A stretch of 60,749 bases of DNA, the filler included, from Rhizaria sp. SCN 62-66 (lineage: Eukaryota): NCBI GenBank assembly GCA_001724265.1. It is 2 parts of 2 records of this genome, joined end to end, with 100 filler letters (N's around TTAATTAATTAA, not from the genome) between each part and the next. Parts side by side here need not be neighbours in the genome. Positions count along the whole stretch, not along the records: positions 30,515 to 60,749 come from MEDY01000366.1; 1 more part is not named here. One strand, given 5' to 3'. The notes beneath the pieces are model-generated. The model made no database searches and was not told the origin of the DNA. It saw only the letters and a list, made by a program, of their open reading frames with translations. The position numbers and the translations under genes were made by a program. Positions 1 through 57,200 of this stretch are shown here, in pieces (position 1 is the stretch's first letter; each line of letters opens with the position of its first letter).

Positions 1-569
1 ACAGAAACACCACCTTTGGACACAGCGAGGGGAATACACCGTGGGCCGTCTTCGTCACCGTCTCACATGCTTTTTTATGTAAAATGTCGTGCGTCACAAC
101 TGCTTATTGTTGAATTGATCAAAGTTGTCTCTGTCGCCATCGTGGAGTTTGACCACGCGCCAGCTATTAGTAAGCTTACATTTTAATCTTTAAGCATCTG
201 TCGGGGTGCAAGGAGGGGTTTTAGTCAGTAGTATGTGACGACGAGTCTGACACTGTTCACTGGGGTAGCCTAGCGTTCGTCTTTAAAAGATTTCCCTGTC
301 GATCGGTCTTTTAGTCAGCGATGGCTAAGAGAAAACGCGCCGATACTAGTACTAGTTTTTAAAAAAAGAAGCTCTGTCAACCTGTAAAGAACGAACAACT
401 CTCCGAATTCGTCATACAAAACCGTTGGGTATACAATAAACAGTTATATTATTTATAAATAAAGTAACATATAGAGATATAAATAGCTTTTCATAAATCC
501 TTAGCCGATAATGAATATTTTTTTTAAAAAACTTAGATACTTAAAATTGGGCCTGCAGTGTATCTAAAA

Positions 570-641
570 GGTCTTATAGTATAGCGGTTAGTACGATTGG
601 CTCTGATCCAATAGTCCTGAGTTCGAATCTCGGTAAGACCT
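570..641 (+). tRNA. trnQ-CTG: tRNA-Gln, anticodon CTG (603-605)
   Basis: Cloverleaf: acceptor stem GGTCTTA/TAAGACC, D arm GTATAGCGGTTAGTAC, anticodon arm ATTGG-CTCTGAT-CCAAT, T arm CTGAG-TTCGAAT-CTCGG, discriminator T, followed by an oligo-T Pol III terminator. Confidence 0.95.
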
Positions 642-1224
642 TAATTTTTTGGCCGCCCTCTTACCATGGTCCGGCGCCAAATCACGCCAAATCGCGCTTC
701 CTCATGACTAATTTTTTTTTTGCACCCACGGGATCTCCTGGCTGATCCACTAGAGCCGCAGCTCTATTGGTCAGTGAAGTCATCTGTCACCGCGCCGCCG
801 CACACATGCGCGCAGGGCCCGCCCACCGCTGGTGTGAATCTTGAATTGTGAAGATGAGGATGGTGAATCTGAGGAGGACAGTTGTGCGGAGGATGATGAG
901 GAGGACGATGAGGAGGACGACAATTACGCTTCGTGAATGTAACAAGCTGCGCTGATACGTGTGTTTTCATTTGAAAATTTCATGTATGATAGTCAAACCT
1001 AAATAACAAGTAGTTGTGACAAAACAAAACTATCAGCTAAAATAAGCAGCATCGTTCGTACTGTCTGAAAACAACCAACGCAGACTGCACTGCTCTCGCA
1101 GCGGCACCTCGGCCACAGCAAGTGCTAGTCTAATGGCCCTTTCTCTCCGGGCCAGTTCTGCTCAAACAGCGACAGACACACGCAAAGCAGTGGAAGTGTT
1201 TATCTCTTGCACATAGAGCTCGAG

Positions 1225-9643: not shown

Positions 9644-12600
9644 TTAGGTTGTGAATCCTGAGGCTAAGAGACTGTCAACTCCGGCAATGACTGTATCAGG
9701 ATGCGTTGCTACACCAGGCGCACTGCTCACAGTTAGCCGAAACTTGCACTGTAAACACACAGACGAGGTACTGAGACTTGGACTTGCGGAGTGCAATTGA
9801 CACAGCTCGTGAGCCACGGTGATTGTGAGCAGCGACTCAGCGCTCTTCGTGCTGGATGGCAGAGTGCTTGAAATAAAGCCAGGGCAGTCTAGCGCAACGC
9901 CAGCTTTCAAGTTGCAGCTACTATCACACTGTTTGCAGTCATTATCGACGCTTGCAGCAGAATAGTTATAACTCTCATTGCTGATTTCACAACCACTCTT
10001 CACAGTTGTAACCGAGATTGCAATATGAGGACCATCAGCCACATCGACATTTGCACTCGTTGCGGTAGCAAAAGTTCTACTTGTACTTGCAGTCATGGGA
10101 GAAAAGAGAGACATCACTGATACAACAGACGCAACAGCAGCAGCGCCCTTGGCCTTTGCAGCCACGATAGCACGTGCACTTACACTCATGTTGATATCGA
10201 GATCGCTGTCGCTGTTATTATGATGAAAGTTGCTGGCACTGACACTCTTGAAAGTACTATTGAGTGACTGGGAGCAATATTGATCGTAAACGCACGACAC
10301 AACATTCAGCGAAGGGACTGGGCACTGTTGACTTGAGTGAGTCTGAACAGACTCTGAGTATTTATCGTCAGCAAGAGGCATACTAGCAAAAACATAGCTC
10401 GTGCTGTCGTAGTTATTGTTGTTGCAAACACTTACAGTTACAGTGTGAGCAACATTGTCGCGAATATGATTATTATTCTCAGCAGCAGTAGCTGTTGCTG
10501 CTTGCAGTCCGACCATCGTTGTCGCAACAGCCGCGGTCGTTACAGCGGTCACAGCAGAAACCAAGACAGCACTCAAATCGTCACTCTGTTGCGTACAGTT
10601 ACCGTTCGAGCTATTGCTACTGCTGTGACATTGTTCACGCATTGCGCGCTCAAACAGTTGAGCCACACCAGCAGTAGCGCCTTTCTCACTCCCACTGCGG
10701 CCAATCCTGTCGGAGCCGCTTGTGGCGGCGGCCAGAGCCAAGTGCGCCTTAAAGCGTAACAGCAACAAGGGAGAGAATGAGCGTGACCAAGCAATACGAC
10801 GGCGAGCAGCGCCAAGGTAGCCTTGCTGCTGCTGATTTTGGCCTAGTTGACTGGAGCCGCAACCGCTTGAGCTGCGATTGTTTGCGGTCGTATGCACGCT
10901 CGTGTTAGCATTTGATTTTAAGCCGCCGGAGAACAATGTGTTGATTAGAGATGCAAGTGTAAAGAATGGTAGATAGGAGATGAAAACAAAGTACCAAAGT
11001 GAACCGCGACTGTAAGTACCCATCATATTCATCTCACGTAGACTCTTAGCTGAGCTAGTGTAAGGCTTTGTCAGTGACTAAGAGCAGCTGCATTCACATG
11101 CGCAGCAAGGCCCCAACTGTGTCTGTGAAAGCTGCTGGGAGATGCTGTTGCATCCGGCATTATTAACCGCCGTAGCAGCATCAGCAGTACTCGCCGCTGC
11201 CATTTTATTCGCAGTTGATGATGATGGCCCTACACCTGTTGCTGTAGCAGCGGTGGTTACAGACCGCGAGAGCGGGGATGTTAGCACGTAAGCGCCAAGC
11301 CTCTTAGAATTTGCTGCAATGCGCTTCGACATGTCTGCATTATCAAACTCTGCAATGCTGCCCTTGTTTTTTAGCTGTCGCTGCTGGAGCTGTAGCGATG
11401 ACGGTGACAGAGCTGATGGTGGTGCAAGCTGAGGAATTACAGGGGAAACAGATGAGTTTGAGCTTGCTGCACTCGCTGTAGCTGATACTGGCGCCGACAC
11501 TGGCGAAATACCTGCAGAGGTTAAAGTTGAGCGAGGACTTGCAATAGCACCACGCTGCCGCAGCTCTGAGGCAGGGCTTAATACCTGGCGACGCTGTAAA
11601 TCAGACGTGTTATCTGAATCATCGTTGTGGTAGTTTGCAATCATACTATCGTCAACACTGCTCTTGCTTATGCTATCGATGCAGCTTGCAGCAATGTTAT
11701 GATGGTAGTTGTGTTGGGGCAAAGGCGTGCGTGTCAGGGCTTGCGATTGTGAAGGTAACTGCGAACAAGAGCTTGGCGACTGCACATATTCTGGGCACAC
11801 GCAACACTTTTGGCTTACTAGACATGTGTGAAAGCGGCTAACATCATTGTCATTTGCAAGATACGAGTAGTGACTGTGAGATTGACAGTGACTGTGTTCG
11901 TCATTGCAATCAACGTGTGCTGTTGCCAGTCTCGTTGAAGCTGTTGCAAGCGCTATCGGTTCAGGTGTTACGCGTAGCGCTAACGACGGGGTTTCACCTT
12001 TCCACGCAGAAGTTAAGCCGCCACCAGAGGCGTGAAAAGCAGCAGCGGCAGCCACACGGCAGCGCTGGTGCTTGTGGAGGATCCGCGTGCTGAGATTGTT
12101 GTGATCACATTGAGAACGCTCTAAGCAGGCTTGGATGTAAGTTGACGAAGCACTAAGACTGTTCTCACAATTATTATTACTGCCTAAGTTATGGTTACGA
12201 TTGCTGCCACTTGTCGCCGCTTTGTTATTGTTAACAGCAATGCTGGTGACCCTTACGTCCCGCTTAGCAGATGAGCTTAGACGCGGATACTCAAACTGCA
12301 GCTGCACGCGGAGTAGCAACGACGCAAGTACTGGAAGCGGAAGCACGCGGAGCTGGCTTAAAGTCAAGCCGCCGGCAGTCACAGATAGGCCTTTACTCTC
12401 TGTGCTGCTAGCATGTGCAGGACTTTGCGCCATACCGTCACCGTTCGCAAGAGCATGCTGAGTGGGTAATTGTGGAAGTTGCAACAGCGGAAATGAAGCT
12501 GTTGTTGAGCTTTTAATCTTGTCGCTTGCGCAAGTCGTCAAACCAGTGTTGTGAGACGTCAGCAAGGAGTGATACTTGACTTGTTCAAGAAGCTGTTCGC

Positions 12601-15600
12601 TTGAGCTGGACCATTTGTCGAGCCATGTACTAAGACCAGCGTCACTTGAATCGGTGCCAACATGCATCTTCAAAGAGCTGCGATTCTTTTTGAGCACATT
12701 ACGAGCAAAATTTTTGCCGTTGTTGTGATCGTTACAATTACCTGCGTTGGTAGTGTACTCATTGCAGTATCCAGAGCTGTTGTTTTGCTTGCTAGTGCCA
12801 GTGACGTTGCGGTAGAGTGACCGTGGAGACTTAAGCAGCTGACCAGCGCCATTCTCGCTAATTACACTCATGCTGGTAAGGTTACTCGAGCTATTTGTGT
12901 TACGCCACTCGTTCTGTTGCTCATGAATATGCACAAGCTGAGACTGCTTGTTGGTGTTGCGTGGGCTTAGAACAGTACTATTCTCATCTTCTTCATTGCT
13001 GTCGCAATCATGGCGGCTGCTGTAGCTCGAGCTCCCATCACTGCTCGCATTGCAACCTTCACGGATCCCTATGTTATTGCCATCATTTGTCGAGAGCGCT
13101 TCCAACAGTGACGCAAACACAGTTGCGTGAACAACAGAGAGAGCTGACAGTTCATGGCCAAAGATGGAATTTGCGTCCGGGCTTGCTGAAAGCGCAGTTG
13201 CGGCTGTTACCCTGAGACGTGCCAGCAAAAGCGGGTGGCAACGAAACAGCACAGCTGACCGTGACTGCAGTTGCGTCTGAGAGTGCACGCTGTTGGTTTT
13301 GTAACGAGGACCACACGCGTTAATAAGTGCAATTTCCCATAAAGGACCCTCCGCTTCAGCCATCACTTCAGCTTTTGCTTTATCGCTGGCCTTTACGGCA
13401 GCTTTAACGGCCTTAACAGCCGCTGCAGCAGCCGCAGTCGTTGATCCTGCTGTGCCTGCTATTGCTGTTGCATTGGAATTCGCGCTCGTAATCGCAGTAG
13501 CCGCCGCGGCAGAGGCGAACTTAGCGGCATTGACGGCGGCAGCAGCGGAGACAGTGAGTTGTTTCAACGAAGCAAGCGGCTTGACAGCAACAAGCGATAC
13601 AAAGGCCTGCAGCGCATGCTGTGTAGGCAACCGCAAGTAGTCACTGTTTTCGCTATTTTCATTCTCACGAGAGCAAGTTTTCGTATTGTCTGCGCTACTA
13701 ATACTAATACCGTCCTCCTCTTCTTTGTTAGACTCACAGTTGCGTCCATTAGCACCAGATCTGCCTTGCCACTGTTGCTGTTGCTCTTGGAATTGTTGCT
13801 GCTGTTGCTGCGTAAATGCAAACTGCGACAAGGACAGCGAGTAGTTGCGACTGCGTGACTGTGTGAATGGCTGTGAGCGTGACTGAGCAATGGTAGTGAC
13901 CAACGCCGCTGCGGTGGGAAATAATGCTGCTGCTGAAGTAACACGAGAAGATAAGTTTAGTTGCTTTGCTGACGACCAGAAGGTAAGCCGCATGGCACTA
14001 TAGTCACACGCGTTGTTAGTACCCGTGTTGAAACTAGAACCGCGTGAACGGCATAAGGAAAACCTTGCTGATGGTTTGCTGATTGTAACATCAGCATTAA
14101 CAGCATAGCTACTTATATCACCAGCAAGAATTGCACTTGCGTCAGGAATGCCTGCAGACCTCGATCTATTATTTCTCACAGTCTTAGAGCTCTTATTCTT
14201 TAGAGCAGCCTGATTGCTGCTGGCACCATCTAAGGGCTGCTTCGACAGGTCTAAGGGTGCCTCCGCGAGCGGCCCCGCACGCCAGTCGCTCCACACGGCC
14301 TCCGCGACCGCGGCCCGAAGCTCGTCTAGAGTGACCTCGCGCGGCAGCAGCAGCAGCAGCGTGTGCGGCGAACACTGGCAGCGCGGGGACAGTGCGCAGC
14401 AGCAGGGCGGCAGCCAGGCCGGTAGTGGCACTGGCAACGCTGTGGGGGCTGTAACGGTCACCGTGGCTTTCGTTGTAGCTGCGGCAACATCAGAGAGATT
14501 CGAAGTGGCTTTAGTAGGACTGCTGCGCGCGCAAGCCTGACTGTGAGCACATGAATGACTGTGAATGCTGCAGTGTTGAGCCGCAGAGCCGTGGCCTGGC
14601 TAGCAAGCCAGGCTTAAAGAGGCGTTGAACATGCTACGTTGTGCTTGCGGTGTAGAGGTCAACACGTTCACTTGCGGGGCAGCGCTGGTGTAGGTGTGGC
14701 ATCCGCCCACATCAGTATACGTGTAGTTGTTGGCATTTGAGACACGGGCATGGTGGGTGCCCGTCTCTGGCGCCAGCTGCGACTGCAGCTGCTGCTGGTG
14801 TTGTAGTTGGAGCGACTGCCAATGAGACGGAAAGGAGACTGAAATCGGGGTTGTGTCCGAAGTTAAGACGCCTGGCGTGGCTTGGGGAGACGCAGATAGA
14901 GACACACTGCTTGCCGCTGCGCCATTGTTGACGACAGCAGCAACGGGTTTGAATGCTGTGGTTGCAGTTTGAGGTTGCTGTCCGCAAGGCTGCAGCGTTG
15001 CGCTGTCAGTTTCCTCTCCAGCACTTGTTGAAATCGTAGTCATCTTGGGCTCTGGTGCTGCTGCTGTTACTTTGGCAATCAGATTAGTTTCACTACTGCC
15101 TTTTGCGGTTGTGGCTGCTAATGCCAACTTTGCAGCCTTTGGCTGGACTGGCAGCAGTGGTGGTTTTACATTAGCAGCGCACACTTTGGCCTCAAGCTGA
15201 GGCTCCTCGTCAATGCCTTGAAGTAAGATGCGTGTTGCGCCGCTTGCCGTGAGCCTCAGCATTACTTTGCGACCACCAGGCGCCGGCAACGGAGCGGGAC
15301 AGGCGTTACCAGCGCATATAACATTGGTGCTGCCACTTGTGTTAGCGCTCGATATTGTCGCGTTGTTGCAATAATCGAGTGAGTCAATTGACATAAAGGA
15401 GTCGATGCTGTTGATTGACGGGAAAAACAACGAAACAGGAGACGGAGGCTCAGCCTCAGCCTCAGCTTTAGCCCCAGCATCACAGTCCTTCTGAATCAAC
15501 TCATCATTGTTCGCGCTGATGCCACTCGCATGCCCGTGTTCTTCACGCTCACAGTTGCCGCCGTGACCGATATTTGCGTCAGAGCTGTTTGATTGTGAGC

Positions 15601-21728: not shown

Positions 21729-21759
<31 letters not shown>

Positions 21760-24700
21760 GCCGTCGGTACTGTAGGAGCCGGTGCCGACCGACGCGGGCA
21801 GCTCGTCGCCGTCCTCGGCGTTGGCGTCGCTCACGGTCACACCGGCCGCGGCGTTGACGCTGGTCGCGCCCGCGGCTGCGAGCGCGGCGCCGTTGTTGGC
21901 GCTGGTGTCGGTCGTGAGCGTGGTGATGCCTTCGTAGAGCGAGGACATGCTGCCGCCCGTCGCCGTCGCCGCCAGCGTGCTGAAGCGCGCCGCGAGCGCG
22001 GCCGACAGCGACGCCGACAGCGAAGGTAGGCGCGCGAGCTCATTGGGGCTGGCCGTGTCCGTGGGCAGACGCCAAGACTCGGAGCACGCGGCATCGTTGG
22101 TCACGTCCAGCTCGAACTTGAACTGCTTGTACTTGGCCGAGAGCTCGACGAGGCGCGCGGCCTGGACGCGGACGGCACTGTCGCTGTCTCCATTGGGGCC
22201 GGACATGACGGTGGCAATGCTAGCGCCAGCCTTGGCGACCCAGGTGGCAAAATTGGCCTTGAGCGCGGCGTTGAGCGTCGAGCTGGCCGAGACCCAGAGC
22301 GTGTCTGCCTTGCCCATGAAGGCGACGAGGCCCAGCGTCACGACGCGGCACTTGCAGTCGCTGTCGGCGGCGAAGCCCGGCTCGCAACCGCAGCTGCCGC
22401 AGTCAGCGCTCGCCGTGCCCAGGTTGTGGCACGTCCGGGTGCAGGTCTGGCAGGTGTCGCCGGTGTAGGCGTCAGGACACACGCAGCCGCTGCTGCACTT
22501 TGCCTGGTTGTCGCTGCCGAAGTAGCCCGTCTTGTAGCCGCCGTTGGCGCACATCGAGGTCAAGCCCGGGCACGTCGCCTCGGTTGCGCGTTCGCACTGG
22601 TCGCCGGTGAAGTAGTCGACGTTGCTGCTGTCGTCATCTTCGTCGTCGTCGTCGTCCTCATCCGGGTCCGGGACGCGGCACACGCAGGTGGCGCGCGAAG
22701 TCTCGGCGTCGACGGTGCACTCGGCCGTCGTAGCAGGCTTGCACCGCTTCGTGTCGCATGGCGTGATGTCGCACGCGGCGCCAGACCAATCGCCCAAGCA
22801 GTCGCAGACGCCTGTGGACTCGTTGCACGTGCCATTGTCGCCGCAGAGTCCAGCGCAGGCGGCGTCGACGGTGACAGCCGCGTCGGAGGTGGCCGTGAAC
22901 TCGGCGGTGAGCACGCCCTTGGCCTTGTACGACTGGCCGGCAAGCAGCACCGACGCGGCGGGGCGCGGGAAGGTGAGCAAGTAGGTCGTGCCAAACATGT
23001 CGACCAGGGTGTCAGTGTTGGGGGCGTAGGCGGTCGCGAGCACGATCTCGGTGGCCGCGGCGGCGGTCGAGACGAGCGAGATCTTGAGCTTGGGCTGCGG
23101 CGACGCAGCGGGCTGCGAGACGAGGAACTCATAATTGTCGTTGGTAAAGGTCAGCTCGATGGTGACCGAGTCCGCCGTGACCACAGGGGCGGAGAGGACA
23201 AATTCGGAGGAGGAGTCGCACTAGGTGCCCACGTAGTATGGCGAACACTCGCACACCCCGTCGACATCATCCTACAAACACGGCCGAGAAAGCGAAAAAA
23301 GACAGAAACGGACAAAAGTGAGTGAAGATAATCGATCAACCTTACGAATAACGTATTTCAATAATTGTCCAATTTTGAAGAGATATTGTAAAGATTTGTG
23401 TCTCGAAGATGATGTGAGAACGCACCTGCCAGCGGCCCAGGCCGTCGTACTTGCCCGAGAGCTTGCACGAGCCATGGTCGCACCTCGGCGTGCCATCATC
23501 ACTATATTTGATCCAGTCCTCGCACTCAGTGTACGACGGCAGGGGCGCCTCGATGCCAGCGCAGAGGGCAGGGACGACGACATCGCCATCGCTCGACATG
23601 CAGACGTAGTCCTATTAGTATCAGCAAAAAAAAACACCATCAAAAAAACAAAAACAATATCAAACAAAGTCAGGAAGAGCATAAGTGAAAGAAACCAGTT
23701 TCCGTGCATCGTTCGGTCGAATATATAATATTGGTATTTTTCAATATATGTGCTAATAATTATCAGCAGCGACGTACCTTATACGAAGACTTGCGGCACC
23801 CCTTAACGGATGAAGGGCAGGTGGCAAAGTCGTCCACCTCCCACTTGTAGGTCACTGTAGTGTTGCAGGCAGGCAGGTAGCAGGGGAACGTGAGCGTGGT
23901 GTTGGCTGCGGCGCCGCAGAGCGTGCTGGACACGATGTTCTTGCCGTGGTCCATGCACACGGCCTCGGTTACAATGCCCTCGATCTCGTTCTCGGGGTCG
24001 GGCTGGCACGTGTAAGTCTCGCCGTCCTTCTTGCACTTGCTGTCGATGCGCGCGAAGATGCCACATGACGTCTTCACAGTCGTGCAGTTGGCCGAGAGCG
24101 CGGGAGCCGTGCCGCCGCACTGCGCCGTGGGCACCTGGTGCCCCGCAAACATGCAACGCGCCACGCGCGTCGGGCTCACGGGGCGCTCGATGCAGCCCGT
24201 GGTGGGGCACTGTTCGGCGAAACCGCCCAGGCCGTCGTTGTCGGAGCAGGGTACGGCCGTGGACGCCGCGGCGCCCGTGGCGTGGCACATCCACGTCGCG
24301 GCCGCGCAGCCGGCCTCGCTGGTACACGTGTGCACGAGCTCCGGCACGGGCGCGTAGGCCGCGCAGGGCTGCAGCAGCGCGGCGGCGCGGCCGTGCGACT
24401 GAGTGAAGCCCGCGAAGGTGTAGTTAACGGTGTTGGAGACTGCGCGCATGACGCAGCGCGCGGCGCGCGTCTTGAGCGCGCTGCCGCAGGCGTCGGTGCA
24501 CGTGAGCTGCGCGAGGTCGACGGCCGACTCGTAGCACGAGAGCCACGTGACAGCGCCGTCGTCGAGCGAGCCGTCGTCGGGTGCCAGCGCACACTGCCAG
24601 AGGTACTGGTCGCAGTGGTACGACGCGCAGTCGCGGACCGTCGTGGGCGGATTGGCCACGCCGCCGCACTTGCTGGCGTAGACGTCGGTCGACTTGATCA

Positions 24701-26971
24701 GCGCCAGCGTCGTGTCGACGCAGTACGTGGTGCGGTTTGAAGTGCCGAAGCCGCAGGTGTTCTGAGAGCACACTGGGTTCCACGAGCTCGAGTCGGTGCA
24801 TTCGATCGGCGCGAATGAGGCGGCCGCACCCGAGCTCTGCATGACGACGGAGTTGGGGTAAGACAGACACTTGTAGCCGCACGTGCTCGAGGGCTTGCAA
24901 GTGCCGGCGTTGGCGGGCTTGGTGACGAAGTTAGCGGGACACAGTGTCGCGGCGTCGATCTCGGCTCCCGTGGCGGCGCTGACGCAGGCGAGCGTTGCGG
25001 CCGGAATCGCGCTCTCGACCTCGGTCTCGTTGCAGCCCGCGGGGCAGACCAGGAAGTCGTCAGAGCAGGCGGTGAAGGCCCCCGCGGGGGTGCGGCATTG
25101 CCAGCTGCCGCAGCCCGAGGTGACTGGGACGAGCGCGGGCAGCGCTGGGAGCGCGACCGAGCACGTACGCTTGGTGGCGGTGCTGAGCGAGACGTAGATG
25201 GGCGCCACAGACACGTCGGCGCACTACTGGCTGGCGCCGTAGGTCGGCATGCCGCAGTTGTTGGCTGGAGGAAAGCCCGTGCTGCACGGGTAGTAATCGC
25301 CTTCGCTGTTGAGGCAGGTGTACTCGCTGATGGCGATTGCGCTTTCGCTGAGGCTGTAGTAGCCGTTAGTCGTGATGCTGTTGACAGTAAAGGCGGCGAG
25401 CGCAGTGATGGCAATGCCGTCAAAACCTTCAACTTCGCCAAAAGACCGCACGGCGCGGAGCGAGAGCACTTTCGCGGCAACCGCGGGCCGGAAGGACAGG
25501 ATGTAGTAGAGATCATTAGGATCTTCAACAGAATTTTCAATCACTCCGGAAATATCGCACTTCGTGATGTCACTCAAGGAGGAGCCCGGCAGCATATTGA
25601 CAAACTCCGTCTTGATCGCGTTGCACAGCTTGATTTCCGGGGCGTCCCCCATGCCAATCACCTTGAAGAGCCACAAGGCCGTGGCGACGGGGTCCGTGAA
25701 GGGTTGCAGCACGGCCGGCGCGGTCGGAATCATGCTCCGCCTGCTCACGGCCGTGTTCGCGTTACTCACGCGCGCGTTCGACTGCAGCAGCAGCGACACC
25801 GCACCCGGGTCAGCGGCGTCGAAGTCTTGCGTCCGCAGCGTGAAGCCGGTGCACACGAGCGAGATCTGCTTGTCCGGGGTCACGTTCGTGGAGCTGGCGA
25901 AGTCGTCGAAGTAAGAGCGAGAAGCCGAGTCCGCGATGTAGGCCGTGTACATGCCGGGATACCCCGAGTCGATCGTGAGCGGCACGAGCGAGACGGTCGA
26001 CTCGGAGGGCCAGTGGGTCTCGCGGCCGCCGCGAATGTAGCAGGTGGGCACGTCGGTGAGGTAGTCGGGGTACGAAAATGAGATCTTGAAGCCCTCCATA
26101 CTGACGTCCGCCGCGGTGGAGTCGTAGAGGACGCGGGCGACGAAGCTGGCGGTGTCGCTCGCGGTGTCGAACACCAGCACCGCTGGCGCGTTGGTGAAGA
26201 GCACGGAGGGGTTGTTATAAAGGACCTCGCCCACGAAGGCCGCCGTCGTGGGCGCGCGGAGCGCAACGCGCACGTTGGCGGCGAGGTCGACCGAGTTCTG
26301 GGCCACGGTGATGGCCATGTAGGCGTCCGGCTTGACATCGCTCGCCACGGGGGGTGTGACGGGGATGTACGCTTGCTGTAGCAAGTTAATCACGTCAGTT
26401 GGACGAGGGAGAAACAAAAACGAGTTGTTTTGGGTGAGCGAGGAAGTGAGTACACAAGAATGCACAGGAGGTAGATTGAAAGAGGTCGCAATAAAAGTCG
26501 CCGAATTGAGCTGAGTTGAGTTGAGTTGAGATGAGTTGAACGTACGAAGGACTGGGAGCTGAGCATGGTCGCATTGAAGGTGACGACCAGAGAGGAAGAA
26601 TCGTAGGTGTAAAGGACAGTCGAGACGGTCCCGTCATTGAATGAGACGTAAACCGATTCCTAAGTGGCCTCCACAGTGTAGAGGTGCCCCATGCGGACCT
26701 TGAACTGGAGCGGAACGTCGTTGGCGAAGACGTCAGCGCTGCCGGGGCCCGAGGTGCGGTTCAGGTGGAGCCTGATGAACGCAAGCGAGGGCGAGGCCGC
26801 GGAAGTGTAGGGGAAGACACCGGTGAAGCTGACGAGGAGACTCTCCGCAAAGGCCGACTTGCCGAGGTTGTTGGGGAGGTCCGCGGCAGAGACGAGAAAG
26901 ATGGAGCAAAGCATGAAGAGGAAGACCGACTGCACCAGAAGCAGTGTCGGGCGACACCGCAGCGAAAGCAT
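21430..26971 (-). CDS. Type I cell-surface protein with signal peptide, Cys-rich TSP1-like repeats, EGF-like repeats, one TM and a short tail; exons 26971-26546, 26375-23778, 23611-23426, 23271-21430; in-frame TAGs at 26662, 25226 and 23223
   Basis: Signal peptide MLSLRCRPTLLLVQSVFLFMLCSIFLVSA; TSP1-like motifs (CSQNTCGFGTSNRTTYC, CTDACGSALKTRAARC); EGF-like motifs (CDCLGDWSGAAC, CVCPDAYTGDTC); TM IIVAVVVPVCVVLIIIAFIVCYL. Three phase-0 GT-AG introns; ends in TAA. Confidence 0.85.
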
Positions 26972-27814: not shown

Positions 27815-29595
27815 TTACTCGGGCACTGCTCCGTTCTCACCTTCCTCGGGCGCGGCGCTCTTGTCTTTCTTGTCCTTCTTCTCCTTCTTGTTCTTCTTGT
27901 CGTCCTTGTCCTTCTTATCCTTCTTGTCCGCCTTGGGGGCAGCGCCGTCCTCCTCCTCCTCCTCTTCCTCCTGAGCAGCGCCCGCGCCCGCGCCCGCGAC
28001 AGGCGTAGCGCCAGCGCTCGCAGCCGCACTCGCCGCGCCGGCGTCGTCGCTGGTGGAGTTGGCCGCGTCGCCCTCAAACACGACGGGCGCGTTCTCGTCG
28101 AAGTCCGCGTCCTCCTCCAGCGGACCGTGCTGCTGGTCGTCGTCGTCGTCGTCGTCGCTGTCGTCGTCGTCGCCGTCGGCCCCAGCCCCGGAGCCGCCGC
28201 GGCGGTTGACGATGTCGTCGTTGCCGACGGCGCCGTCGTCGTCCTCGAACAGGGCCGGGTTATGCGCGAAAAGCGCGCGGCCCGACATGGCAGCCTGGCC
28301 GCGCGTGAGCTTGTCCTTGCTCTTGGCGGCCTCGACGCGCTCCGTCTCGATGCGCGCAGCCTTCTCCTTGTCGCGCTTCTCGCGCCACAGCCGGAAGCTC
28401 TCCTCGGTGACAGGCGTGCACTTGGAGATGTCGAGCAGCTTGCGCTTGGCCTCGATCTGCTCACCGATGTCCACCTCCTCCGTCTTGTCGTCCATCTTCT
28501 TCTTGGCGACGAAGACGTAGCCTAGCGGCAGCGCGTGGCGGTAGTGGCACTTGACGCCGTTGGGGCACTCCCAGAACCAGCCGTAGTTGTTCTTCTCGAT
28601 CGCGTCGAGGAAGTACTTGCACACGATGTCGGTCGCGGGGAGCGCACCCTTCTGCTGCTGCTTCTGGCCGACGACCTGCTCCAGCTTCGCCTGGTCCCAG
28701 GAGTCGATGCTGTCCTTGAGACGAGGGTCCTGTGAGGGTGGTAACAAGGTAGAGATGAAAGGCGTGAGCGCAGACAGATAAATCGAGAGATACAGGTATA
28801 GAACGCAGCACGGGAACTAAATACAAAGAAATCGACTTAATACAGGTTGATATGAGCTCGCTAGAGAGTGTTGTGACCGATGAACGGACCTCGTAGATGT
28901 TGATCTTGGCGGACTTGCGCTCGTTGGTGGCGTCGTGGGAGAACTTGCACTTGTCACCGCGCGGGCAGCGGCCGTTCATGAAGTCGGGGCAGATGGTGTT
29001 CTTGGCCTCGATGGCGGCCGCCTTGGCCTCCTCCTTCTTCTTCTCGCTCTTGAGCGCGGCCTTGGTAGTGAAGAGGTTGCCGAAGATGGCGGCCTCCTCC
29101 TTGGCGCGGCGCGCGGCGGCGCGGGCCTCCAGGCGCGCCTGCTCCTCGGCTGCGCTCGAGCGCGAGCCCTGAGACTGCTTGGCGGCCGACTCGACGTTCT
29201 TGATGTACTCCTGAACCTTCTTCGACTTGTTCTTGTTCTTCATGCCGAAGGTCTTATCTTCGACGATCTGTGTGAGTAGTTGCGTATAAACAGGGGCGGG
29301 AGAGACGCGGCGGGCGGGGCACGGGGGAGAACAGGGTGTGTGGGACAAAAGACAGGGGCAAGGTGAGGGAGTGGAGAAACGGTGAGTGCGAATTGCAATA
29401 GAAAGCGGGCCAACGGGCGGGCGCGGCAGAGGGCGGAAGAGCGGGACGGGATGTGGCAGTCGGTGACGCGAAAGTCAAGTCGAAGCGCAAGAAAAAAGCG
29501 GGATAGAGCGATGCGGTAGCACGCGCGGGGGAATATTAAAGGCGGAGACGAACCTTCTGGACCTTCTGGGCGGTCGTACCCTTCTTAGGCGGCAT
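27815..29595 (-). CDS. ZC3H15: CCCH zinc-finger protein ZC3H15/Tma46 (DRG1 partner); exons 29595-29554, 29267-28890, 28729-27815
   Basis: MPPKK...IVEDKTFGMKNKNKSKKVQ, CPDFMNGRCPRGDKCKFSHD, TDIVCKYFLDAIEKNNYGWFWECPNG..CHYRHALP, TPVTEESF and MSGRALF are family hallmarks. Ends in TAA. Confidence 0.95.
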
Positions 29596-30414: not shown

Positions 30415-30514
30415 NNNNNNNNNNNNNNNNNNNNNNNNNNNNNNNNNNNNNNNNNNNNTTAATTAATTAANNNNNNNNNNNNNNNNNNNNNNNNNNNNNN
30501 NNNNNNNNNNNNNN
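30415..30514. other. Artificial contig joiner: 44 N + TTAATTAATTAA + 44 N
   Basis: Symmetric 100-nt N block with a six-frame stop linker. The gene on the right is truncated at it and does not continue on the left. Confidence 0.95.
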
Positions 30515-31617
30515 CGCGCGAGCGCCGCCTCGCGCTCGGCAGCGCGGGCAAGCGCGGCGTCGCGCGCGGCCACGGCGCCGCGCAGCGCGGTGGCCTGCTC
30601 GGCCGCGGCGGCGCGTGTCTCGGCTAGCGTGCGCTCCAGCTCGAGCACGCGCGCGCGCAGCGCGGCGGCCTGCGCGAGCGCGGCCGCGGACGCGGCGGCA
30701 GCGGCGGCGCGCGAAGGCGCCAGCAGCCGCGACGACGCCAAGTCCGACAGCCGCGCCGCGGTGGCCGCCACGGGGCCAGAGTCCGCGGCGGCGCCGGCGT
30801 GCGTCTCACCGCCGCCAGAGCCAGTGATGACGCCGAGACTCGCGATGTCGTTCTCGTCGTCGTCATCGTCACCAGCGCCGTGGCGAACAGTGTTGGGTGC
30901 AAGCCGGCCGCCGCGCTGCGGTGAGAAGCCGCGCTAAGGCGAAAAGGCCTGCGACTGCGCCTTCCGCAGCTTGCCTGGGGCGGGCGAAGCCGCAGCAGAA
31001 ACAGCAGCAGTTGCGTGGCCGTGCGTGCGCGCGAAAGCGGAGGCAGGCAGCGGGTCCGGCGCAAGGCGCGAAAGACGGAGGTCGTCGCGCACACTCTCCG
31101 CGGTGCCCATGGCGGCCGCCGCGGTGCGCTGCTCGGCCCACGCGTGCACCTGCCTGAGAGTGCTCACCGCAGTCTCTGCCGCATCCGCGCCCGCGCCCGC
31201 GGCGGCGGTCGCGGCATCAGCTTCAGCGGCGGCCAACGCTGCGCGCGAGGCGGCGGACGCGGTCGGGGACGACGCCGCTGCAGCTGCTGAGGCAGAGGCA
31301 GCGGCTGCTGCTGCGGCGGCGGCACCGGCGGCGCGAGGAGACCACGAGTCGCCGTTGGAGCTGGTCGTGGGAGTCATGGGCGCGAGCGCGCGCGTTGACG
31401 TCGCAGTCGATGCGCCGCGGCTCGGGTGCGGGCCAAACATCGCGGTGCGCGCGCGGCGGTCGCGCTCGGCCTCGGTGACCTCGCCCACGGCCTGCGACAT
31501 GGCGACGCTGATGCGGGCCAGCGAGGCACGTTGCTGGGCGCGCAGGCTCTGCGCCGCGCGGGACAAGTCCTGCGCCAGCGCAACCGCGTCGGAGCGCTGA
31601 GGGGGGATCTCGTCCAT
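30515..31617 (-). CDS. Ala-rich coiled-coil protein, 3'-truncated by the gap; in-frame TAG at 30936-30934
   Basis: The 248 aa and 102 aa ORFs are in one frame, separated by a single TAG within FSP*RGFSPQRG. Heptad-like segment LRARVLELERTLAE. Start codon uncertain. Confidence 0.7.
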
Positions 31618-32097
31618 TGTGTGCGCGCCCCGGAGGGCTGAGCTGAAAGGGAACCCGCCTGCTGGCGAGACAGGATCCAAGTGCTGGGAAATACTCTGGT
31701 CCCAGTCAAACGAGCAAGATAGTTAGCAGTGTCAGGCGCACGCTAGACACAACCTATGCAAAACAATTAAAAGAGAAAAAATTTGATAACTTAGAAATTC
31801 ATTTAGTAACTTTGCATTCACTCTGGACGATTACGATGTTCACTTGGTTTGAATTTTAATTGATCGTTTCTCGACACACACCCCAACGGGTCGCCACAAT
31901 CGCATGACAAGCGCAGAGAGGCGAAACGATAGAATAAGTTGAAGCAGTGCCAAGAAAAATGAATTTTCACACAAGTCTGTATTATGTTCCATAAGCCATG
32001 TCGAAGTACGACCTCGCATGTTTTACCAGTCCAAATGTGTCTTATACAAGTCGCATATGTGGCCAGTAAAATGGATTCACGATAACACAATGCGCGC

Positions 32098-33386
32098 TCA
32101 AGCGCTGTTGATGTCGGGCACGACGCTGTTGTAGTGCGCGCCGAGCGCGCATGCGTGCTGGTGGAGCGCGAGGTGAAGCTTAGCGCGCTCGGCGGGCCCG
32201 TCGCCGGGGACCGTGATGGCCGCGCCCTGGGCCTGGTGGACGACGATGTCGCGGCCCAACACCGCCGCCAGCGCGCTCAGCTCGGGCTGCCCGCCCCACT
32301 GTACGTCGCCGCCCGCAGCGCCCGTGTTGGCCATCGCGGCGAAGTATGCATCCGCGTCCTCTACGCATGGCGGCACCGCAGAGAGTGCAGAGCAGATATG
32401 TGATGAGAGTCGGAGTAGTTCATGTGAAGTGTGTTGTGCGAACATAAAATAAAGAGAGAAAATGCAAAATAAAAGCAGGTGGGCAAATTAATCCAGAACG
32501 TAGAAAATCGCAAAATAGTCTTAAAACCAATGAAACACGATACAAACGCGATGGCTCGAAAATGAGTCTGCGTACCGACGGGGTCGCCATCGGCGGAGAT
32601 GAGGAAGGGCGCGAAGTCGTCCCTGTGCGCGCGCATGTGCTCCACAGCGGCCGTGCGCAGCGCCGCGGCGTCGCGGAGCCGCGTGGCGGCGCTGGCGTCG
32701 CCGTCGTCGTCGGCCGCGTGCAGCGCGAGCTGGTCCGCGATCGCGCGGAACATGCAGTGGCCGTCGGCGCGCACCTCCTTGATGCGCGGCGCGCAGCCCG
32801 CGAAGGAGCCCTCAAACGCGACCTGCGCGGCCAGCTTCGCGGCGAGCGCGGCGAACTCGAGCGCACGCTTGTCTGGAAGCGCGGCGGCCTCGGCTGCGAG
32901 CGCGCGCTCCGCCTCGGCCTCGCGGGCCTCGCGCGCAAGCGCCTTCTTCTTCTGCTTCGAGATCTCACCGGAGCGGTCCGCGTACATGCCGCCACCCACG
33001 GCCGCCGCCGCGGCGCCGCTCTCCGCGAGAGCAGCAGCACCGGGCGCGGGCGCGGCCTCGCCGGCCTCGGCGAGACGGAAGGCGGTCCACTGCGCCTGCA
33101 GCGCGGCCATCGCGGAGGCGTGCGCGACCTCGACAGCCTTTTCCTGATCCTTGAATGCCTTGCCCTTAGCGGTCTTCTTCAGCTCCTACAGGGGCGCGCA
33201 ACGACGAAGAGTAAGCGGTCGAAGTGGATAGCGATGAGCAACGTGTTTACATTCATGGGTGGGTCATGCTGTGTGTGAACTGGAGGAGTGTTAGCGTACC
33301 TTAAGCTCCTTCTCCTGGCGAGCCTTGAGCTGGTGAATGGTCTCTGAAGGCTTGGAAACGTTGTGCGTGACCTCTGTGTCAGACAT
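32098..33386 (-). CDS. OTUD6B: OTU-domain deubiquitinase, OTUD6B/Otu2-like; exons 33386-33300, 33185-32576, 32360-32098
   Basis: N-terminal ARQEKELKEL motif; catalytic motifs IKEVRADGHCMFRAIADQL, WGGQPELSAL and LGAHYNSV. Introns keep frame; ends in TGA. Confidence 0.9.
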
Positions 33387-36899: not shown

Positions 36900-37306
36900 G
36901 GACCCCAAACGCTTGCCAGGCGGAATGCAAGCGGCTTAGCTCGGAAAGTTTTCCTAATAAAGTTATATATTTACATATACAGTTTGTGTGAGCGTTCTGC
37001 ATTTAGACACTTCTGGACAGTGTCAGTGGTACATCCATGGTTTTTGTCTCAGCCACAAACGCAACATGCGGTGCGACTAGCGTTGCTCTGGCGGATTTCA
37101 ACATACGGTGCCTTGCGTGGCATACGCATTCTCGACTCGCATGATTTTAGGATATTTTGTTATAGTAAAGCTTAAATAATACTTTAATTCTCACTGTCGC
37201 ATTGACGGACTATGTCGCTCAATCTCATTTCAATCCTGTTCGCTCTCAACACTCTTGTCCGTTGGGCTCGCTCCTCAACATCGCCCATACTCACAGGCTT
37301 CCTCAC

Positions 37307-37814: not shown

Positions 37815-37845
<31 letters not shown>

Positions 37846-37938
37846 GCCGGGAGCAATCGGCCCGTCCGTGGGCCCGCTCCCGCTGTCGGTGGGGCCGTTA
37901 GCGGCCGGCGCGTGCACCGGCGGCGCTGAGACCGATTC

Positions 37939-37970
<32 letters not shown>

Positions 37971-51200: not shown

Positions 51201-54200
51201 CGGCAGCAGCATTCGCAGCGGCGGCAGTCGCGCTCGCCTTCGCGGGAACCGTTACAACGCCGGCACTGCCGAACTCAGAGGCGCTTAACGCCAGGGCAGC
51301 TGCCGCAGCCGCGGCGGCCGCGGCCGCGTCCACCTCTCTTTCCGGAAGCAGCATGTCAACGTAGTCGCTCTCAGCGCCGCCAGCGGCCAAAAACAATGCG
51401 CGGATCCCGGCCGCTGTCGCACTCGGTTGCGGCGGGGCTAGTACGGATACAGACGCGGACGAAGCGCCAGGCAGCGGTGCAGCGAGGAGGCCGGCGCGCG
51501 CCGACGCCACAGCCTGATCGACTGTCGAGCGCGCTGGCTCACGCGTTGACTGCGCCGCGGTCTCTGCTGCGGCCGCGAGGGTGCGCAGCCCACGGCGCGC
51601 AGCACGTGCCCTGCGGGCAACAATTGTCACAAGGGCCCGCAGCAGAGGCTGTGGCATGTTGCGCGCGTCTGGCAACGAGCCTGCGAGCGAGAAAATGGCC
51701 GCGTCATCGAGCGAGTCCAGCATACCGAGCGGCAGATTAAGCGAGCCACCCGCGCCGACACTAGCGCCCATAAACCCATGTCCGACGCGCTTTGCCGTCG
51801 GCGATACCGTACCCACAGGAGTGGCTGAAGACGACAGAGGGTGAGAGCTGTTTGAACGCATGGACCCGAGCGAGCCGGTGGTGTCGTCGTCCTCGTTCTC
51901 ATCCAACCCCGGCAGTCCATCGCTGCCGCGACCGCGACCGTCCGGGTCCTCGCTGTCAGTCGAGTCGCCATCGCCAAAGCCACTGTCGCCGTCCTGGCGC
52001 GGGGACGCCTCGCCCCAGAACCCAGAGTCCGCACCGAGTCCTGTGGCCGCAGCAGCCGCAGTGGCTGCGCGGCGCCGGGCTGTGGCCGCAGCAGCGGCGT
52101 CAGCGTCGACGATTGCGGCCTCCTCGTCGCCCTCGGACGGCGTGGTGAGCATCGCGGGGCCACTGAGGCCGACGTTCGAGTCGTTACTGGCGAGAGAGCT
52201 CGGGCCAGAGCTCGACGCAATCGGCTGCGGGAGGCGGGGCGCCGCACGCCAGGGACCGCGTGAAAACGTGGTGGCCGTGGGCGTGGTCGCCAAGCGCGGG
52301 GAAGCAGCTGCCCAGCCGCCAGTGCCAACCGTGAGCTATGTGGCGCGCGGTGAGAAACCGCCTGGGGCGGGCGCGCGCGGGCTCGCAATAAAAGAAGACG
52401 GCGAGAGCTGCGGCGAAGGAAATCCGTCGGGCGAGCCGGGGGCTGTCAAACCTGACGTCGTGTTTGTCAGCGCAGTAGCCACAGTTACCGCCGCGAGCAG
52501 CGCCGCCTGCAACCCGCCCGCGGTGGGAAGGAACGGCGTCGCCGCAGTCGGGGACGTAAGCCGCAGAGGTCCGGACGAGGTGGCCACGCGAGGAGAAAGC
52601 ATTGCAACGGCGGCCGCGGCGGGGCGCGGGAGCGCAGCGAAGACCTCCGGACTACCCACCATCACTTGTCTCGCGGTACCCGTGGTTGCCACGTCGGCGG
52701 CGACTTCGCGGACCAGCTCGGCGGCGTGGCGCCACTGCGCCTGGATCAGCGGGTTGCGCGGCTTAAGCGGACTGGTCGAGCCTGTGCCGGCGGCACCTGC
52801 GCTCGTGGCAGGACGCGAACCGGCGGGGAGTGTGCCGCGCTCCAGGCCTGCGGCCACTGTCGCAGCGACGGACGCCGCCGCCGCGGCCGCGCGCGGCGGA
52901 AGAGCGTCATGGCGCGCGCCGCCATTAGCGGTCGCAATGCGGCCACGTGCCTCGGCAAGCGCACTGGGGCCATAATGGCGACAGAAGTGTGTGCCGAATG
53001 CAACGCCGCAGCGCGCGCAATAGTGAATGCCCGGTAAAAGCAACGCTGCGCGGCGCACGCGCGCGCACACAAGCACCGCCGACAGGAATGTGAGACCGCC
53101 ACCTTCGTCAAGGTCGGGCGCGCCGGACGCCGCGAGACCGGTGCTTGTGCCTGACTGAGCGGCACCTGCAGACGCGGCGCCTGTCGAAGGGGCTCCAACA
53201 GCGGCGGCGGGTGTTGCGGCCCCCCAGCCGCGCAGTCCGCCGCGGGGGTGGCGCGCAAGACCAGCCTCAGCGAGCACTTCAGACTCCTCGGAGCCCGCAA
53301 GTGGCAGCGCGGGGGCGCCCGCGGCGTTGGCGACGGCGCGGAGCGTGGCGTCCGCGGCGTCCGCGGCGACGTAGGCGGGCGCGACTGTAGGCGCGACGGG
53401 AAACGGCGCGAGCGAGGTGGCCAGCGTGAGCACGAGCGCGCGAGCGAGGGCCGGCGCTGGCGTGGTCACGGCGAACACGACGGCGCCGCCCGACGCAGCG
53501 GCGGGCAGCGGCGCCGCGATGCGCGCCACAACGGCCGCGGCAGCCAGCGCGCGCGCGGCGGAAACGCCGGCGCCGGGAGCGGGCAGTGACGCGAACGATG
53601 CCGAGGCAGAGCGTGTCGGGGCAGGCGTGAACGACGACACTGCACTGTGCGCACGCGGAGCAGCGACTGCGGCTGCAACAGATGTCTGCGTGGTCGACGC
53701 AGCTGAGGCGGCGGCAAGAGCGGCGTCAGCGGCGGCGACTGCGGCCGGTGAAGGCACGGCGCAGAGCAGCGCCCACTGTCCGACAGCGGGGGCAGAGGCC
53801 AGCGCGGCGGACGCGGACGATGTGGCGAGCGCGGTGGCTGAGGTCGAGGCCGCGGCTGATGAGAACGCGTACGGCGACGGTGGCAACAAAAGCGCCGAGT
53901 AGGGATCCGCGTTTGCGGCAGCAGCCAGTGCAGCCTCAGAAGCGGCGGCTGCTACCTCTGCGGCGGCGGCAGTGGCAGCGGTAGCGGCAGCAGCGGCCGC
54001 AGCTGCGGCAGTTGCGGAAACAAGCGGCACAGCGTCGGCGATCACCGCAGGGACAAGACTCTTACTGGCAGCACTTGCCGCCGCCGTGACAGCAGCGCCG
54101 GCAGCGGCGGCCGCGGCTGCAGGCGTAGGGGCTGCAGAGGCAGCGCCCTTACCGGCGCCGGACTTCCGCTTGCTGCCATCGGCTGCGGCAGTCACGGCTG

Positions 54201-57200
54201 CGGCCGCGGACACAGATGGCACGACGGCGCCGCTAAAGGCCGACACAGCGGCGCTCGTGCGCGCGGCAGTCCATTTGCGCCGGAGCGCGGCGCCGCGGCG
54301 CAGCCGGGACATCGCGGCGGGCGGCAGCAGCGCGGCCAACTTCGCGGCCGGCACAAACAGCACCGCGGTCGTCGTCGCCGCGATCGCGGACACAGGCGTC
54401 GCTGTTGCGGCGGCAGACTCTGCGGAAGCCGCGGCAAAAGCAGCCATCGTCGCGGCAGACTGACCGGCGTTCTGCGCGGGGTCGCCGCCCGACGCGCCAG
54501 CGGACGCGCCGGAGGCCGTGGCAGAGCCTGTGGAAGAGGACGACGACGCAGTCGCCGCAGCGACCGCGGAGGTGGCCGAGGGCGCCGTGGCCTGGTACAG
54601 CAGCGACTGTTCGCCGAAAAAGCTCTGCGGGGGCAGCGTCGCCACCAAAACCTGCGTCTCTGCATCGGCGCCAATCGCTGTCGACGCCGCCGTTGCAGCC
54701 GCCGCGGCGGCCGCCGCTGCAGCGGTGTCAGCAGCGAGCGCACGCTGGTCGCTCTCATGGGCCAGTCGGTCCGCATAGCGCGCCTCAGCGGCCGAGCGCA
54801 AATCGGCGTAAGGAGCGGCTGCGGTGGCCTCGCCCGCAGTCGCCTGTAGCATCATTGCGGCTGAAGACGTCGCGGCCGCCGCGGCCGCGGAGGGCGACGC
54901 GCGCGCATCTTGCTGCAGCATCACAGCGCCTGAAACAACAAAGTACAGGCCTAGCGCAGGCGTACCGCGCTGCAGCAACGTGTGTCCGGCAGAAAAGCGG
55001 AGAGGCTCGGCCGCGTACGCGAGCTGCGCGCACACAGTCGCGGGACAGCCGCGCAGAGAGGGCAGGTAGCGGAAGAAAGCGTAGCGGTGCCACGACTCAA
55101 GCGCGAAGGCAGGCGCGCAGTAGCGGTTCACGGCGGCCGTGAACGCCGCGCGCGGCACCACAAGCACCTGTGCGAGCGGAGTCGCGGCCGCGAGCGTGAC
55201 GGGGTGCGCGGAGGGCGGCATGTCGCCCGCGTAGTCGCCCTCGCCGAGTAGCGCCAGATTCAGCAGCGAGCCGGTGGGCACGCTATCGCCGTCCTCTTTA
55301 TCGGAGCCGGCGCCAGAGTCCGCTGCGCCGTCAGCCGCCCCGCGGCCGCGGCTCTTAGAGCCGCCTGAGTCCGAGGACACTGGGACATCTTCGTTGGGAG
55401 CCGCAAGCGCCGCGACAGCGCCGGTGAGCACGAGATATAAGTTGTCAGCAGCGGTACCCTGCTCGCAGATGACCTGGTTCTTAAAGTAAAGCCGCGACGT
55501 CGCTGCAGACACCACGAGGTGTGCGGCCTGCGGCGGCAATTGCGAGAGCAGCAGTAGCAGCGCCGCGGGGGTCCGGTGGCCCGCAGCGGCGCCCACAGAC
55601 GCGGCCGCCGCAGCGCCGCCGCCCGCTGCGGAGGCGAGAAACGGCAGCAGACGCGGTGTCAGCGACGGCAACGGCAACGGCGGCGGCGGGGGCAGCAGCA
55701 CAAGCGCCTTGTCCGCGGCGGGCGCAAGCGCGGGCGGTACCGGCGACGCCGCGAGCGCCAGCGCGCGCGCGAGGGCCTCGCCGGCGCGCGCAGCCATCTC
55801 GACCGGAGTGAAAGCCGTGATTGTGAGCGCAACGCCGCCCACCGTAACCTGCGCTGCCGACCCGCGAGCGCGACCCAGGCTTTCTGGCGACGCGAACGAC
55901 GACGGCGGCATGAGCGCGGCGGGCGCCAAGATCGCGGCCTCAGCGGCGCTGAGAGGGGCGAGCACAGCGCGGCGCGCGGCGGCCGCGCGGGCACGCGCTC
56001 GTGCGCGGGTGGAACGCATGGGTGAGTTCTGAGTCTGCGGCAAGTGCAGGTGGAGTCCGCGCGGGCCGGAAAGCGCGGCGTCAGACTGAGAGTTCGGCGC
56101 CAATTCGCGGCCTGCGCTGTTCTGAGACGTGAGGGCGAGCGCGCGGAGTGCAAGCGCCGCGGCAACTGTCGGCAGCCCGCGCGCGGCGCGCGTGACGCCG
56201 CGGTGCAACACTAGGTCCGTAGCCGTGAGCGCCTGCGCGCGTGTGCGGCGCTAGGGTGGTGTCTCGAGACTGCTGAACGTCGCGTGCGCGTCTTTGAGCA
56301 GCAGCAGCGTCGCGAGCGCCCAAGCGGGCAGCGCGGCCGGCGCTGCGGCGGCGGCTACAATGGGCGCCAGGAATAGGCACGGCAAGCGCAGCGGGGGCGC
56401 CAGCGCGGACGTGGCTGCAGCAACAAGCGCGCCCGATGTGACCTCGTCAGCACCGAGCGGAAGGCGCGGGGTGTCGCCCTCGCTTTCGACGCGCATCTTG
56501 AACAGCCCTGTGGCGCGTTCCTGGCGCGCCTCGAGCCCCAGCGCCGCCAGCGCCACGGCCGCGGAGGACGTTGCGCTGTCGCGCACGACGTCGGAGTCGG
56601 CGTCTTCTGCGGCGGCCGCTGCGGCCGGAGTCGCGGCCGTGGTGGCAGCCGCGAGCACGGCGTTGACAAGCGCGGTCTTGGACATGACGAGGTACTCGCA
56701 GGTAGTCAGTGCGCGCAGGTAGCGCCGCCGCGGTGCGGGGAACGCGCTAATCTCGTCGCAGCCGCCGCTCGCCGCCGCGCCCGCGATGTCTCCGCCGCTG
56801 GTGGGCATAAGAGCGGGCGCGACGGTGACGAACGGGAAAAGATCGTTGCGCACGTACACGGAGCCTGGCCCTAAGTGGCACACTGGCACCAGCGAGTCGT
56901 CGCCGTCGTCGTCATCATCATCCGCGCCCGCGCCGGCGTCGTCGCCCGCCTCGTTGTCGTCATCACCGGTGGTGCCGTCACGCGGGCTGCCACTGAGGCG
57001 GTCGTTTCCGCGCGAGCCATCGGCAGCGGCGCCGTCGCTCGTGGTCGCGGTGCGGCTGCCGGCGGCGCTAGCGCCGTCACTGGCGCGGCCCGCTGCCGCG
57101 CGCGCGCGCGGCTCTGCGCTGCGCCGTTGTTGTGTAAAGCCGAAGCCCTTGGCAGGCGCGCCACAGAGCGGTTTGCGCGTCCCGGCGGGCGCAAAGACGG

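Follow-up and report, generated by a model that had tools for sequence, protein, structure and literature searches.

Whether a TAG codon that lies in frame inside a predicted gene ends that gene or is translated, and in the latter case as which amino acid, is the question raised by one locus in a stretch of 60,749 nucleotides (hereafter the window) joined from two contigs of the assembly GCA_001724265.1, deposited as Rhizaria sp. SCN 62-66. The locus is an orphan, alanine-rich gene on the minus strand (30515..31617), which begins with an ATG at 31617 and whose 3' end is cut by the end of its contig. Codon 228 of this gene, counted from that ATG, is a TAG (30936..30934, minus strand), and it falls within the first of two tandem 18-nt units at 30910..30945 that encode FSP(TAG)RG and FSPQRG, where it aligns with the CAG of the second unit at 30918..30916. 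We consider it about 75% probable that this TAG lies inside coding sequence and is translated, most probably as glutamine, with TAG serving as a rare sense codon and TAA and TGA as the stop codons of the genome. The observations that bear on this answer are the sequence and its in-frame TAG, the coding features that continue behind it, the way TAG is used throughout the window and the recurrence of this same TAG in independent samples.

Read on the minus strand from 30945 to 30910, the two units are TTT TCG CCT TAG CGC GGC and TTC TCA CCG CAG CGC GGC, an exact match to the 36 bases given in the initial annotation of this DNA. They are identical at 14 of 18 nucleotides and differ at three synonymous third positions and by the T/C that separates TAG from CAG; the claim made in that annotation, that the units differ only synonymously if TAG encodes glutamine, is borne out, all four differences then being silent. 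Within the flanking codons the ten first and second positions are all unchanged, as against three differences at the five third positions. As a nucleotide repeat the pair is weak and unremarkable: it is unlisted by Tandem Repeats Finder at a minimum score of 30, and 82 of the 13,139 in-frame adjacent 18-mer pairs are at least 14/18 identical, 77 of these 82 being of low complexity. Among the five complex pairs with at least 14/18 nucleotide identity, only FSP(TAG)RG / FSPQRG has identical peptides. A peptide-level scan at period six across the 11 gene models of the window found all five flanking residues identical in 34 of 26,266 comparisons, 32 of which consist of one or two kinds of residue, while the other two are the FSP(TAG)RG / FSPQRG pair itself, taken in both directions. 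At the peptide level the repeat is unique in the window, the sole complex six-residue tandem repeat in the ~13,100 codons of the gene models, and it qualifies as a real duplication that exceeds the expectation from composition.

The gene has 227 codons before the TAG and 139 after it. Under the standard code an open reading frame (ORF) at 30934..31722 is terminated by this TAG, and the frame then stays open for those 139 codons (the initial annotation had put them at about 140) as far as the artificial spacer (N44, TTAATTAATTAA, N44; 30415..30514, without strand) that joins the two contigs. Since this DNA is 70-85% GC and the locus has further open frames, the open frame alone is weak evidence, and it is codon usage, scored with a model trained on the window's other genes, that carries the case for coding. 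Upstream of the TAG the gene's own frame scores best (0.39, versus -0.42, -0.25 and at most 0.17), and downstream the same frame is again the best (0.43, versus -0.22, -0.45 and at most 0.35); by these scores the frame codes before as well as behind the TAG. None of the 139 downstream codons encodes methionine, so that a separate gene in that frame cannot begin there. The GC-rich block runs unbroken from ~31700 to the contig end, in a window whose non-coding DNA is AT-rich, and the 150 nt behind the TAG have a GC content of 0.71, versus 0.29-0.58 behind 14 terminal stops.

The same pattern is found at other genes of the window. The 11 gene models, with 13,271 codons, contain seven credible in-frame TAGs (~0.5 per 1000 codons), spread over five of the models and both contigs, and neither TAA nor TGA in frame, an absence that is partly circular because the models were built as frames free of TAA and TGA. 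The six TAGs outside the orphan gene belong to four genes, all on the minus strand. In the 2422-codon gene at 9644-16912 one TAG (14600..14602) has 1173 open codons behind it and a second (11078..11080) has 477, followed by a TAA. A cysteine-rich gene at 23763-26318 has its TAG at 25224..25226, in the context CAG TAG TGC, preceded by 469 codons and followed by 486 up to a TGA, and the model of a second cysteine-rich gene, at 21430-23271, has one at 23221..23223 within an EGF-like motif, CECSPYYVGT(TAG)C. The remaining two lie in the model of a 4620-codon gene at 45250-59112 with cyclic-nucleotide-binding domains, at 56251..56253 and at 52336..52338, the latter with 2361 open codons behind it and then a TGA. 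The TAG at 56251..56253 sits in a CTAG palindrome (56250-56253), and a plus-strand TAG is also present at 56252.

Gene ends give the complementary picture, for among 14 of them five are TAA, nine are TGA and none is TAG. Six gene-frame standard-code ORFs of at least 250 codons end in TAG, and behind these the frame continues for 139-2361 codons with high GC content at third codon positions (GC3); behind credible genes ending in TAA or TGA the continuation is 0-51 codons at low GC3. The remaining TAG-ended ORFs were left out of this comparison as alternative frames over these same genes or as the exon of the gene with an OTU domain, where the TAG is at an intron acceptor; the TAG at 23274, likewise an intron acceptor, is not counted among the in-frame TAGs. 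The GC content of the 150 nt behind in-frame TAGs ranges over 0.41-0.74, to be set beside the range given above for terminal stops. Scoring codon usage at each TAG in all frames did not separate real from antisense frames. One TGA was also considered as a reassigned codon, at 38132-38134 on the plus strand, where the ORF 37169-38134 has 224 open codons behind it; it was rejected, for an AT-rich intron lies there, with an RRM exon behind it in a different frame, and once this TGA is explained by the intron, no stop codon other than TAG was found in frame. Taking together the in-frame TAGs on both contigs, the absence of TAG from all 14 gene ends and the finding of the orphan gene's TAG in independent samples, TAG is very probably a sense codon in this genome.

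As for the independent samples, the TAG does not stem from misassembly: a DNA contig from another study (run X3, record 1) covers 30646-31054, the TAG included, with no differences and no gaps. A contig from a polyA metatranscriptome (run X5, record 18) covers 30785-31053, again without differences or gaps, and crosses the TAG, and a second X5 contig is colinear with the genome over 30534-30809. No variant at 30934-30936 is listed in any of four runs, in all of which coverage there is thin. Five of the six long X5 pieces listed lie inside coding parts of minus-strand genes, and most of the bins with zero depth (10 of 30 bins in all) are non-coding, a distribution that gives a weak indication of RNA in contigs that show neither strand nor transcript ends. 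The sixth piece (32464-32758) extends 110 nt into the intron of the OTU gene, so that X5 must hold unspliced RNA or DNA too. As an RNA check on whether an intron covers the TAG, a point raised by the initial annotation, this goes part of the way: the X5 contig is colinear across the site, at contig level only and in a library with unspliced or genomic molecules.

If TAG is a sense codon, the amino acid is quite probably glutamine, since any other assignment places the sole replacement in the repeat exactly on the TAG, with none at ten other replacement positions; we infer a rough likelihood ratio of ~7 for glutamine from this. The initial annotation had taken the repeat to favour glutamine over leucine or tryptophan, and with all four differences synonymous this holds, from what is still a single alignment. 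To this one internal alignment may be added that glutamine is the commonest meaning of a reassigned UAG in the work cited here (PMC5304391; PMC11687900), and the two together point to the proposed identity. The change from CAG to TAG is a single transition, and one other TAG, in the gene at 23763-26318, directly follows a CAG, which is a weak hint. The base after the seven TAGs is C four times and T three times, a pyrimidine in every case, where the pyrimidine share is 0.63 following CAG and 0.39 across first codon positions in general; this may mean that TAG is read under a context rule, or that its context was inherited from CAG. Under the CAG context these following bases have a log-likelihood of -8.26, versus -9.4 to -10.7 under the contexts of GAG, AAG, TAC, TGG and TTG, but TCG (-8.02) fits no worse than CAG, and the hint is again weak.

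Two other explanations would keep the TAG from being translated at all. It could be a true stop, either the end of the gene or a fixed nonsense mutation, with the 139 open codons behind it being untranslated GC-rich DNA, and it is the case that DNA of ~80% GC can hold open frames of such length by chance, that several overlapping frames are open at this locus and that this orphan gene contains no known domain. We nevertheless regard this as very unlikely, because the same frame has the best codon usage behind the TAG, because the DNA behind the TAG is richer in GC than that behind any of the 14 terminal stops, because the two codons that follow the TAG are identical to those that follow the CAG in the second unit, and because the pattern is repeated at six other TAGs, with 477-2361 coding codons behind four of them and no gene of the 14 ending in TAG. 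Alternatively the TAG could be removed by splicing, as the final codon of a GC-rich intron of 234 nt (31167 to 30934) that lies in frame. Several genes in the window are indeed split by AT-rich GT..AG introns of ~150-215 nt: the OTU gene (32361-32574, minus strand, acceptor TAG at 32363-32361), a minus-strand gene (about 28730-28888), the plus-strand RRM gene (about 38079-38234, with approximate borders and an acceptor ending in TAG near 38234) and the gene at 21430-23271 (minus-strand acceptor at 23274-23272, also ending in TAG). Three of these four acceptors end in TAG, and the GTGAGC at 31167 and the pyrimidine-rich CCTTTTCGCCTTAG (...CCTTAG) at 30934 would serve as GT..AG borders of a putative intron whose length is a multiple of three. 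The window's introns, however, have a GC content of 0.29-0.45 inside GC-rich exons, and this sequence has 0.72, versus 0.42-0.45 in the two introns that were scored; its frame-0 score of -5.31 (-5.95 and -5.77 in the other frames) resembles that of the coding windows used for training (-5.52 ± 0.31) and not that of the two introns (~-6.5); and its donor GTGAGC is unlike the known donors GTACGC, GTCCGT and GTACGT. Splicing here would also put the first copy of the peptide in an intron although the second differs from it only silently, would give no account of the six other TAGs, and would have to accommodate an X5 contig that is colinear across the putative acceptor, with no junction among the joints listed. 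We find the intron scarcely credible.

The other two explanations accept that the TAG is translated and depart from the glutamine reading in how, or as what. TAG could encode leucine, or glutamate, lysine, tyrosine, tryptophan or serine as the other one-step neighbours, in which case the T/C of the repeat would be a replacement. A UAG read as leucine is documented twice (PMC5304391; PMC11687900), a single alignment informs the identity, neighbour-residue likelihoods are flat, and in chance alignments other TAGs face not just Q but also A, G and L. Against this, a replacement exactly at the TAG is made less likely by flanks in which first and second positions are unchanged (0/10) and third positions are not (3/5), the step from CAG is one transition, and the following base fits CAG over most of the neighbouring codons, if only as a weak hint; we think a different amino acid unlikely. 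TAG could instead be ambiguous, not fully reassigned, read through as glutamine by a near-cognate tRNA-Gln(CUG) where the termination context is weak and perhaps terminating elsewhere. The pyrimidine after all seven in-frame TAGs (against a share of 0.39 over all first codon positions), the great rarity of TAG (7/13,271 codons) and the fact that the window's sole tRNA is a tRNA-Gln(CUG) would suit such a state, and in organisms with the standard code UAG is known to be read through by near-cognate tRNA-Gln (PMC13192750). The pyrimidine share is already 0.63 after CAG, however, and seven out of seven has a chance of ~0.04 if the CAG context was inherited; none of the 14 gene ends is a TAG, and seven sites are too few for a context rule, which leaves ambiguity distinctly unlikely.

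Several observations weigh against translation of the TAG as glutamine, besides the splice-like borders described above. The amino-acid identity comes from one two-copy repeat, and the likelihoods from neighbouring residues are flat, glutamine ranking first only at offsets of ±1 and valine at wider offsets; low-complexity blastp alignments inside the window match the other TAGs with A, G, L or Q. Fourteen gene ends are a small sample in which to find no TAG, and an X5 contig that is colinear across the TAG still leaves room for splicing, given a library with unspliced or genomic molecules. Neither the protein collections nor the metagenome contigs of the JGI supplied an orthologue or allele of the orphan gene for comparison. 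Its protein has no Pfam family and no match in two word-indexed protein searches (one with the whole protein, one with words from residues 150-290), each of which scored 8000 candidates and was probably swamped by alanine-rich proteins; an exhaustive HMMER search of 1.84 billion representative proteins returned no match at E<=0.001; and of 596 pattern matches in the JGI contigs none was confirmed. No homologues of the TAG-bearing genes were found in the searches made, and the internal repeat is the sole informative alignment. The machinery that a reassigned UAG might call for did not appear either: ARAGORN found no tRNA with a CUA anticodon in the window, a pattern built on the body of the tRNA-Gln in the window, but open at the third anticodon base, had no matches in metagenome and genome contig collections, and the eRF1 gene is absent from the 60.7-kb window. 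The misses of the tRNA scan say little, as the organism itself seems absent from both contig collections.

The only tRNA gene in the window is a tRNA-Gln(CTG) on the plus strand at 569..642, found by ARAGORN and by Rfam (RF00005, 63.8 bits), with a 5-bp anticodon stem and a run of T behind it. Its product, tRNA-Gln(CUG), is a near-cognate reader of UAG and likely the parent type of a CUA suppressor. UAG might be read either by a tRNA-Gln(CUA) descended from tRNA-Gln(CUG) or by tRNA-Gln(CUG) itself as a near-cognate, and an eRF1 without recognition of UAG might accompany this decoding, as proposed for Iotanema spirale. The repeat would then have the following history: in the nuclear genome of a GC-rich microbial eukaryote with AT-rich spliceosomal introns, recurring in wastewater and bioreactor metagenomes, a hexapeptide unit FSPQRG was duplicated in tandem, and its copies afterwards diverged at silent positions only, CAG versus TAG among them.

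The nearest counterpart among known codes is the nuclear code of the fornicate Iotanema spirale, in which UAG encodes glutamine, UAA and UGA are stops, and the proposed mechanism combines a tRNA-Gln(CUA) derived from tRNA-Gln(CUG) with a change in the GTS motif of eRF1 (PMC5304391; PMC9161772). Here as there, UAG alone appears to be reassigned, never ends a gene and is scarce in frame, while UAA and UGA remain stops, and by this comparison the pattern would be a UAG-only code variant of the already known Iotanema type. The two differ in stop usage (104 UAA versus 15 UGA in I. spirale, nine TGA versus five TAA in the window), in base composition, the genes of the window being 65-85% GC, and in the evidence for glutamine, which in I. 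spirale comprises 28 hyperconserved positions and a likelihood test and in the window one internal repeat. UAG is also putatively glutamine in the phyllopharyngean ciliates Hartmannula sinica and Trochilia petrani, where again it alone is reassigned and UAA is still a stop (PMC11687900). The window differs from phyllopharyngean ciliates in its many-gene contigs of at least 30 kb, its introns of 150-215 nt, its high GC content and its frequent TGA stops. Judged by its organisation, it appears unlike a phyllopharyngean macronuclear genome.

UAG has been assigned to leucine in exLh, a rhizarian of the Sainouroidea, and also in three uncultivated phyllopharyngean ciliates (PMC5304391; PMC11687900). 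The exLh code shares with the window a reassignment limited to UAG with UAA and UGA as stops, and sainouroids, being coprophilic or free-living, are compatible with a wastewater habitat; exLh, however, uses UAG abundantly, 384 times in 71 genes, and at conserved leucine positions, whereas in the window it is rare and is paired with CAG in the one informative alignment. In the codes with UAR as glutamine (of the type of NCBI table 6, found in many ciliates, hexamitin diplomonads and others), the tRNA is one anticodon base from the normal tRNA-Gln (PMC5304391), and UAA is reassigned together with UAG, whereas TAA in the window ends five of 14 genes and is absent in frame from 13,271 codons. Code 15 (TAG as glutamine) of crAss-like and other phages has the same codon with the same proposed amino acid (PMC9523058), but it belongs to bacteriophage genomes, and the window, with its spliceosomal introns, is nuclear DNA of a eukaryote. 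Nuclear codes that split UAG from UAA are very rare in the cited work, comprising one fornicate, one rhizarian and a few phyllopharyngean ciliates (PMC5304391; PMC11687900). In the full-text literature searched, which does not extend to subscription journals, we found no wastewater or GC-rich eukaryote reported to have reassigned UAG. Tentatively, and at odds well short of even, we suggest that a GC-rich, intron-bearing, non-ciliate wastewater protist represents a further independent origin of a code with UAG as glutamine and UAA and UGA as stops, possibly at an early stage, UAG being very rare and having a pyrimidine behind it at all seven sites, and possibly with near-cognate decoding by tRNA-Gln(CUG) in place of a dedicated suppressor.

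UAG-only codes bear on how eRF1 discriminates UAG from UAA, and this organism, if the suggestion is true, would add an independent case of UAG as glutamine with a base composition opposite to that of most other variant-code protists, in which one could test whether the rarity of a stop codon precedes its capture. There is also a practical side, since gene calling under the standard code cuts the genes of this organism at each TAG. The protein of the gene at 23763-26318 found a sole match in the protein search, its own C-terminal half (P0001), split at the TAG; the public protein collection holds just this half.

The window is eukaryotic nuclear DNA. Its exons are 65-85% GC, versus 29-45% in introns and spacers, and the Pfam domains found in it are Chromo, OTU, FUN14, UBA_4, CCCH/DFRP, longin-SNARE, EAP30 and RRM; Rfam finds no rRNA within the 60.7 kb, and the ESM Atlas places the DFRP protein no more narrowly than in Eukaryota. 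Its DNA recurs in metagenomes from bioreactors, wastewater, activated sludge and microbial fuel cells, and long pieces with no differences were matched in runs of three studies besides the possible source study. Runs X7-X12 hold small shares only and are not counted as evidence of habitat.

Among the neighbouring genes, the 4620-codon gene at 45250-59112 (minus strand) is alanine-rich and intronless, its cyclic-nucleotide-binding domains matching Pfam PF00027 at E=2.9e-15, and its protein has no relative in the genome contig collection. The 2422-codon gene at 9644-16912 (minus strand) is a further orphan, without a Pfam family, and has a GC3 of ~0.5, far under the 0.64-0.9 of its neighbours. 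The two neighbouring cysteine-rich genes (21430-26633, minus strand) probably encode surface proteins: the one at 23763-26318 has repeated C..CG..C modules, and the one at 21430-23271 has CxCxxxYxGxxC motifs, presumably EGF-like, and a C-terminal membrane span.

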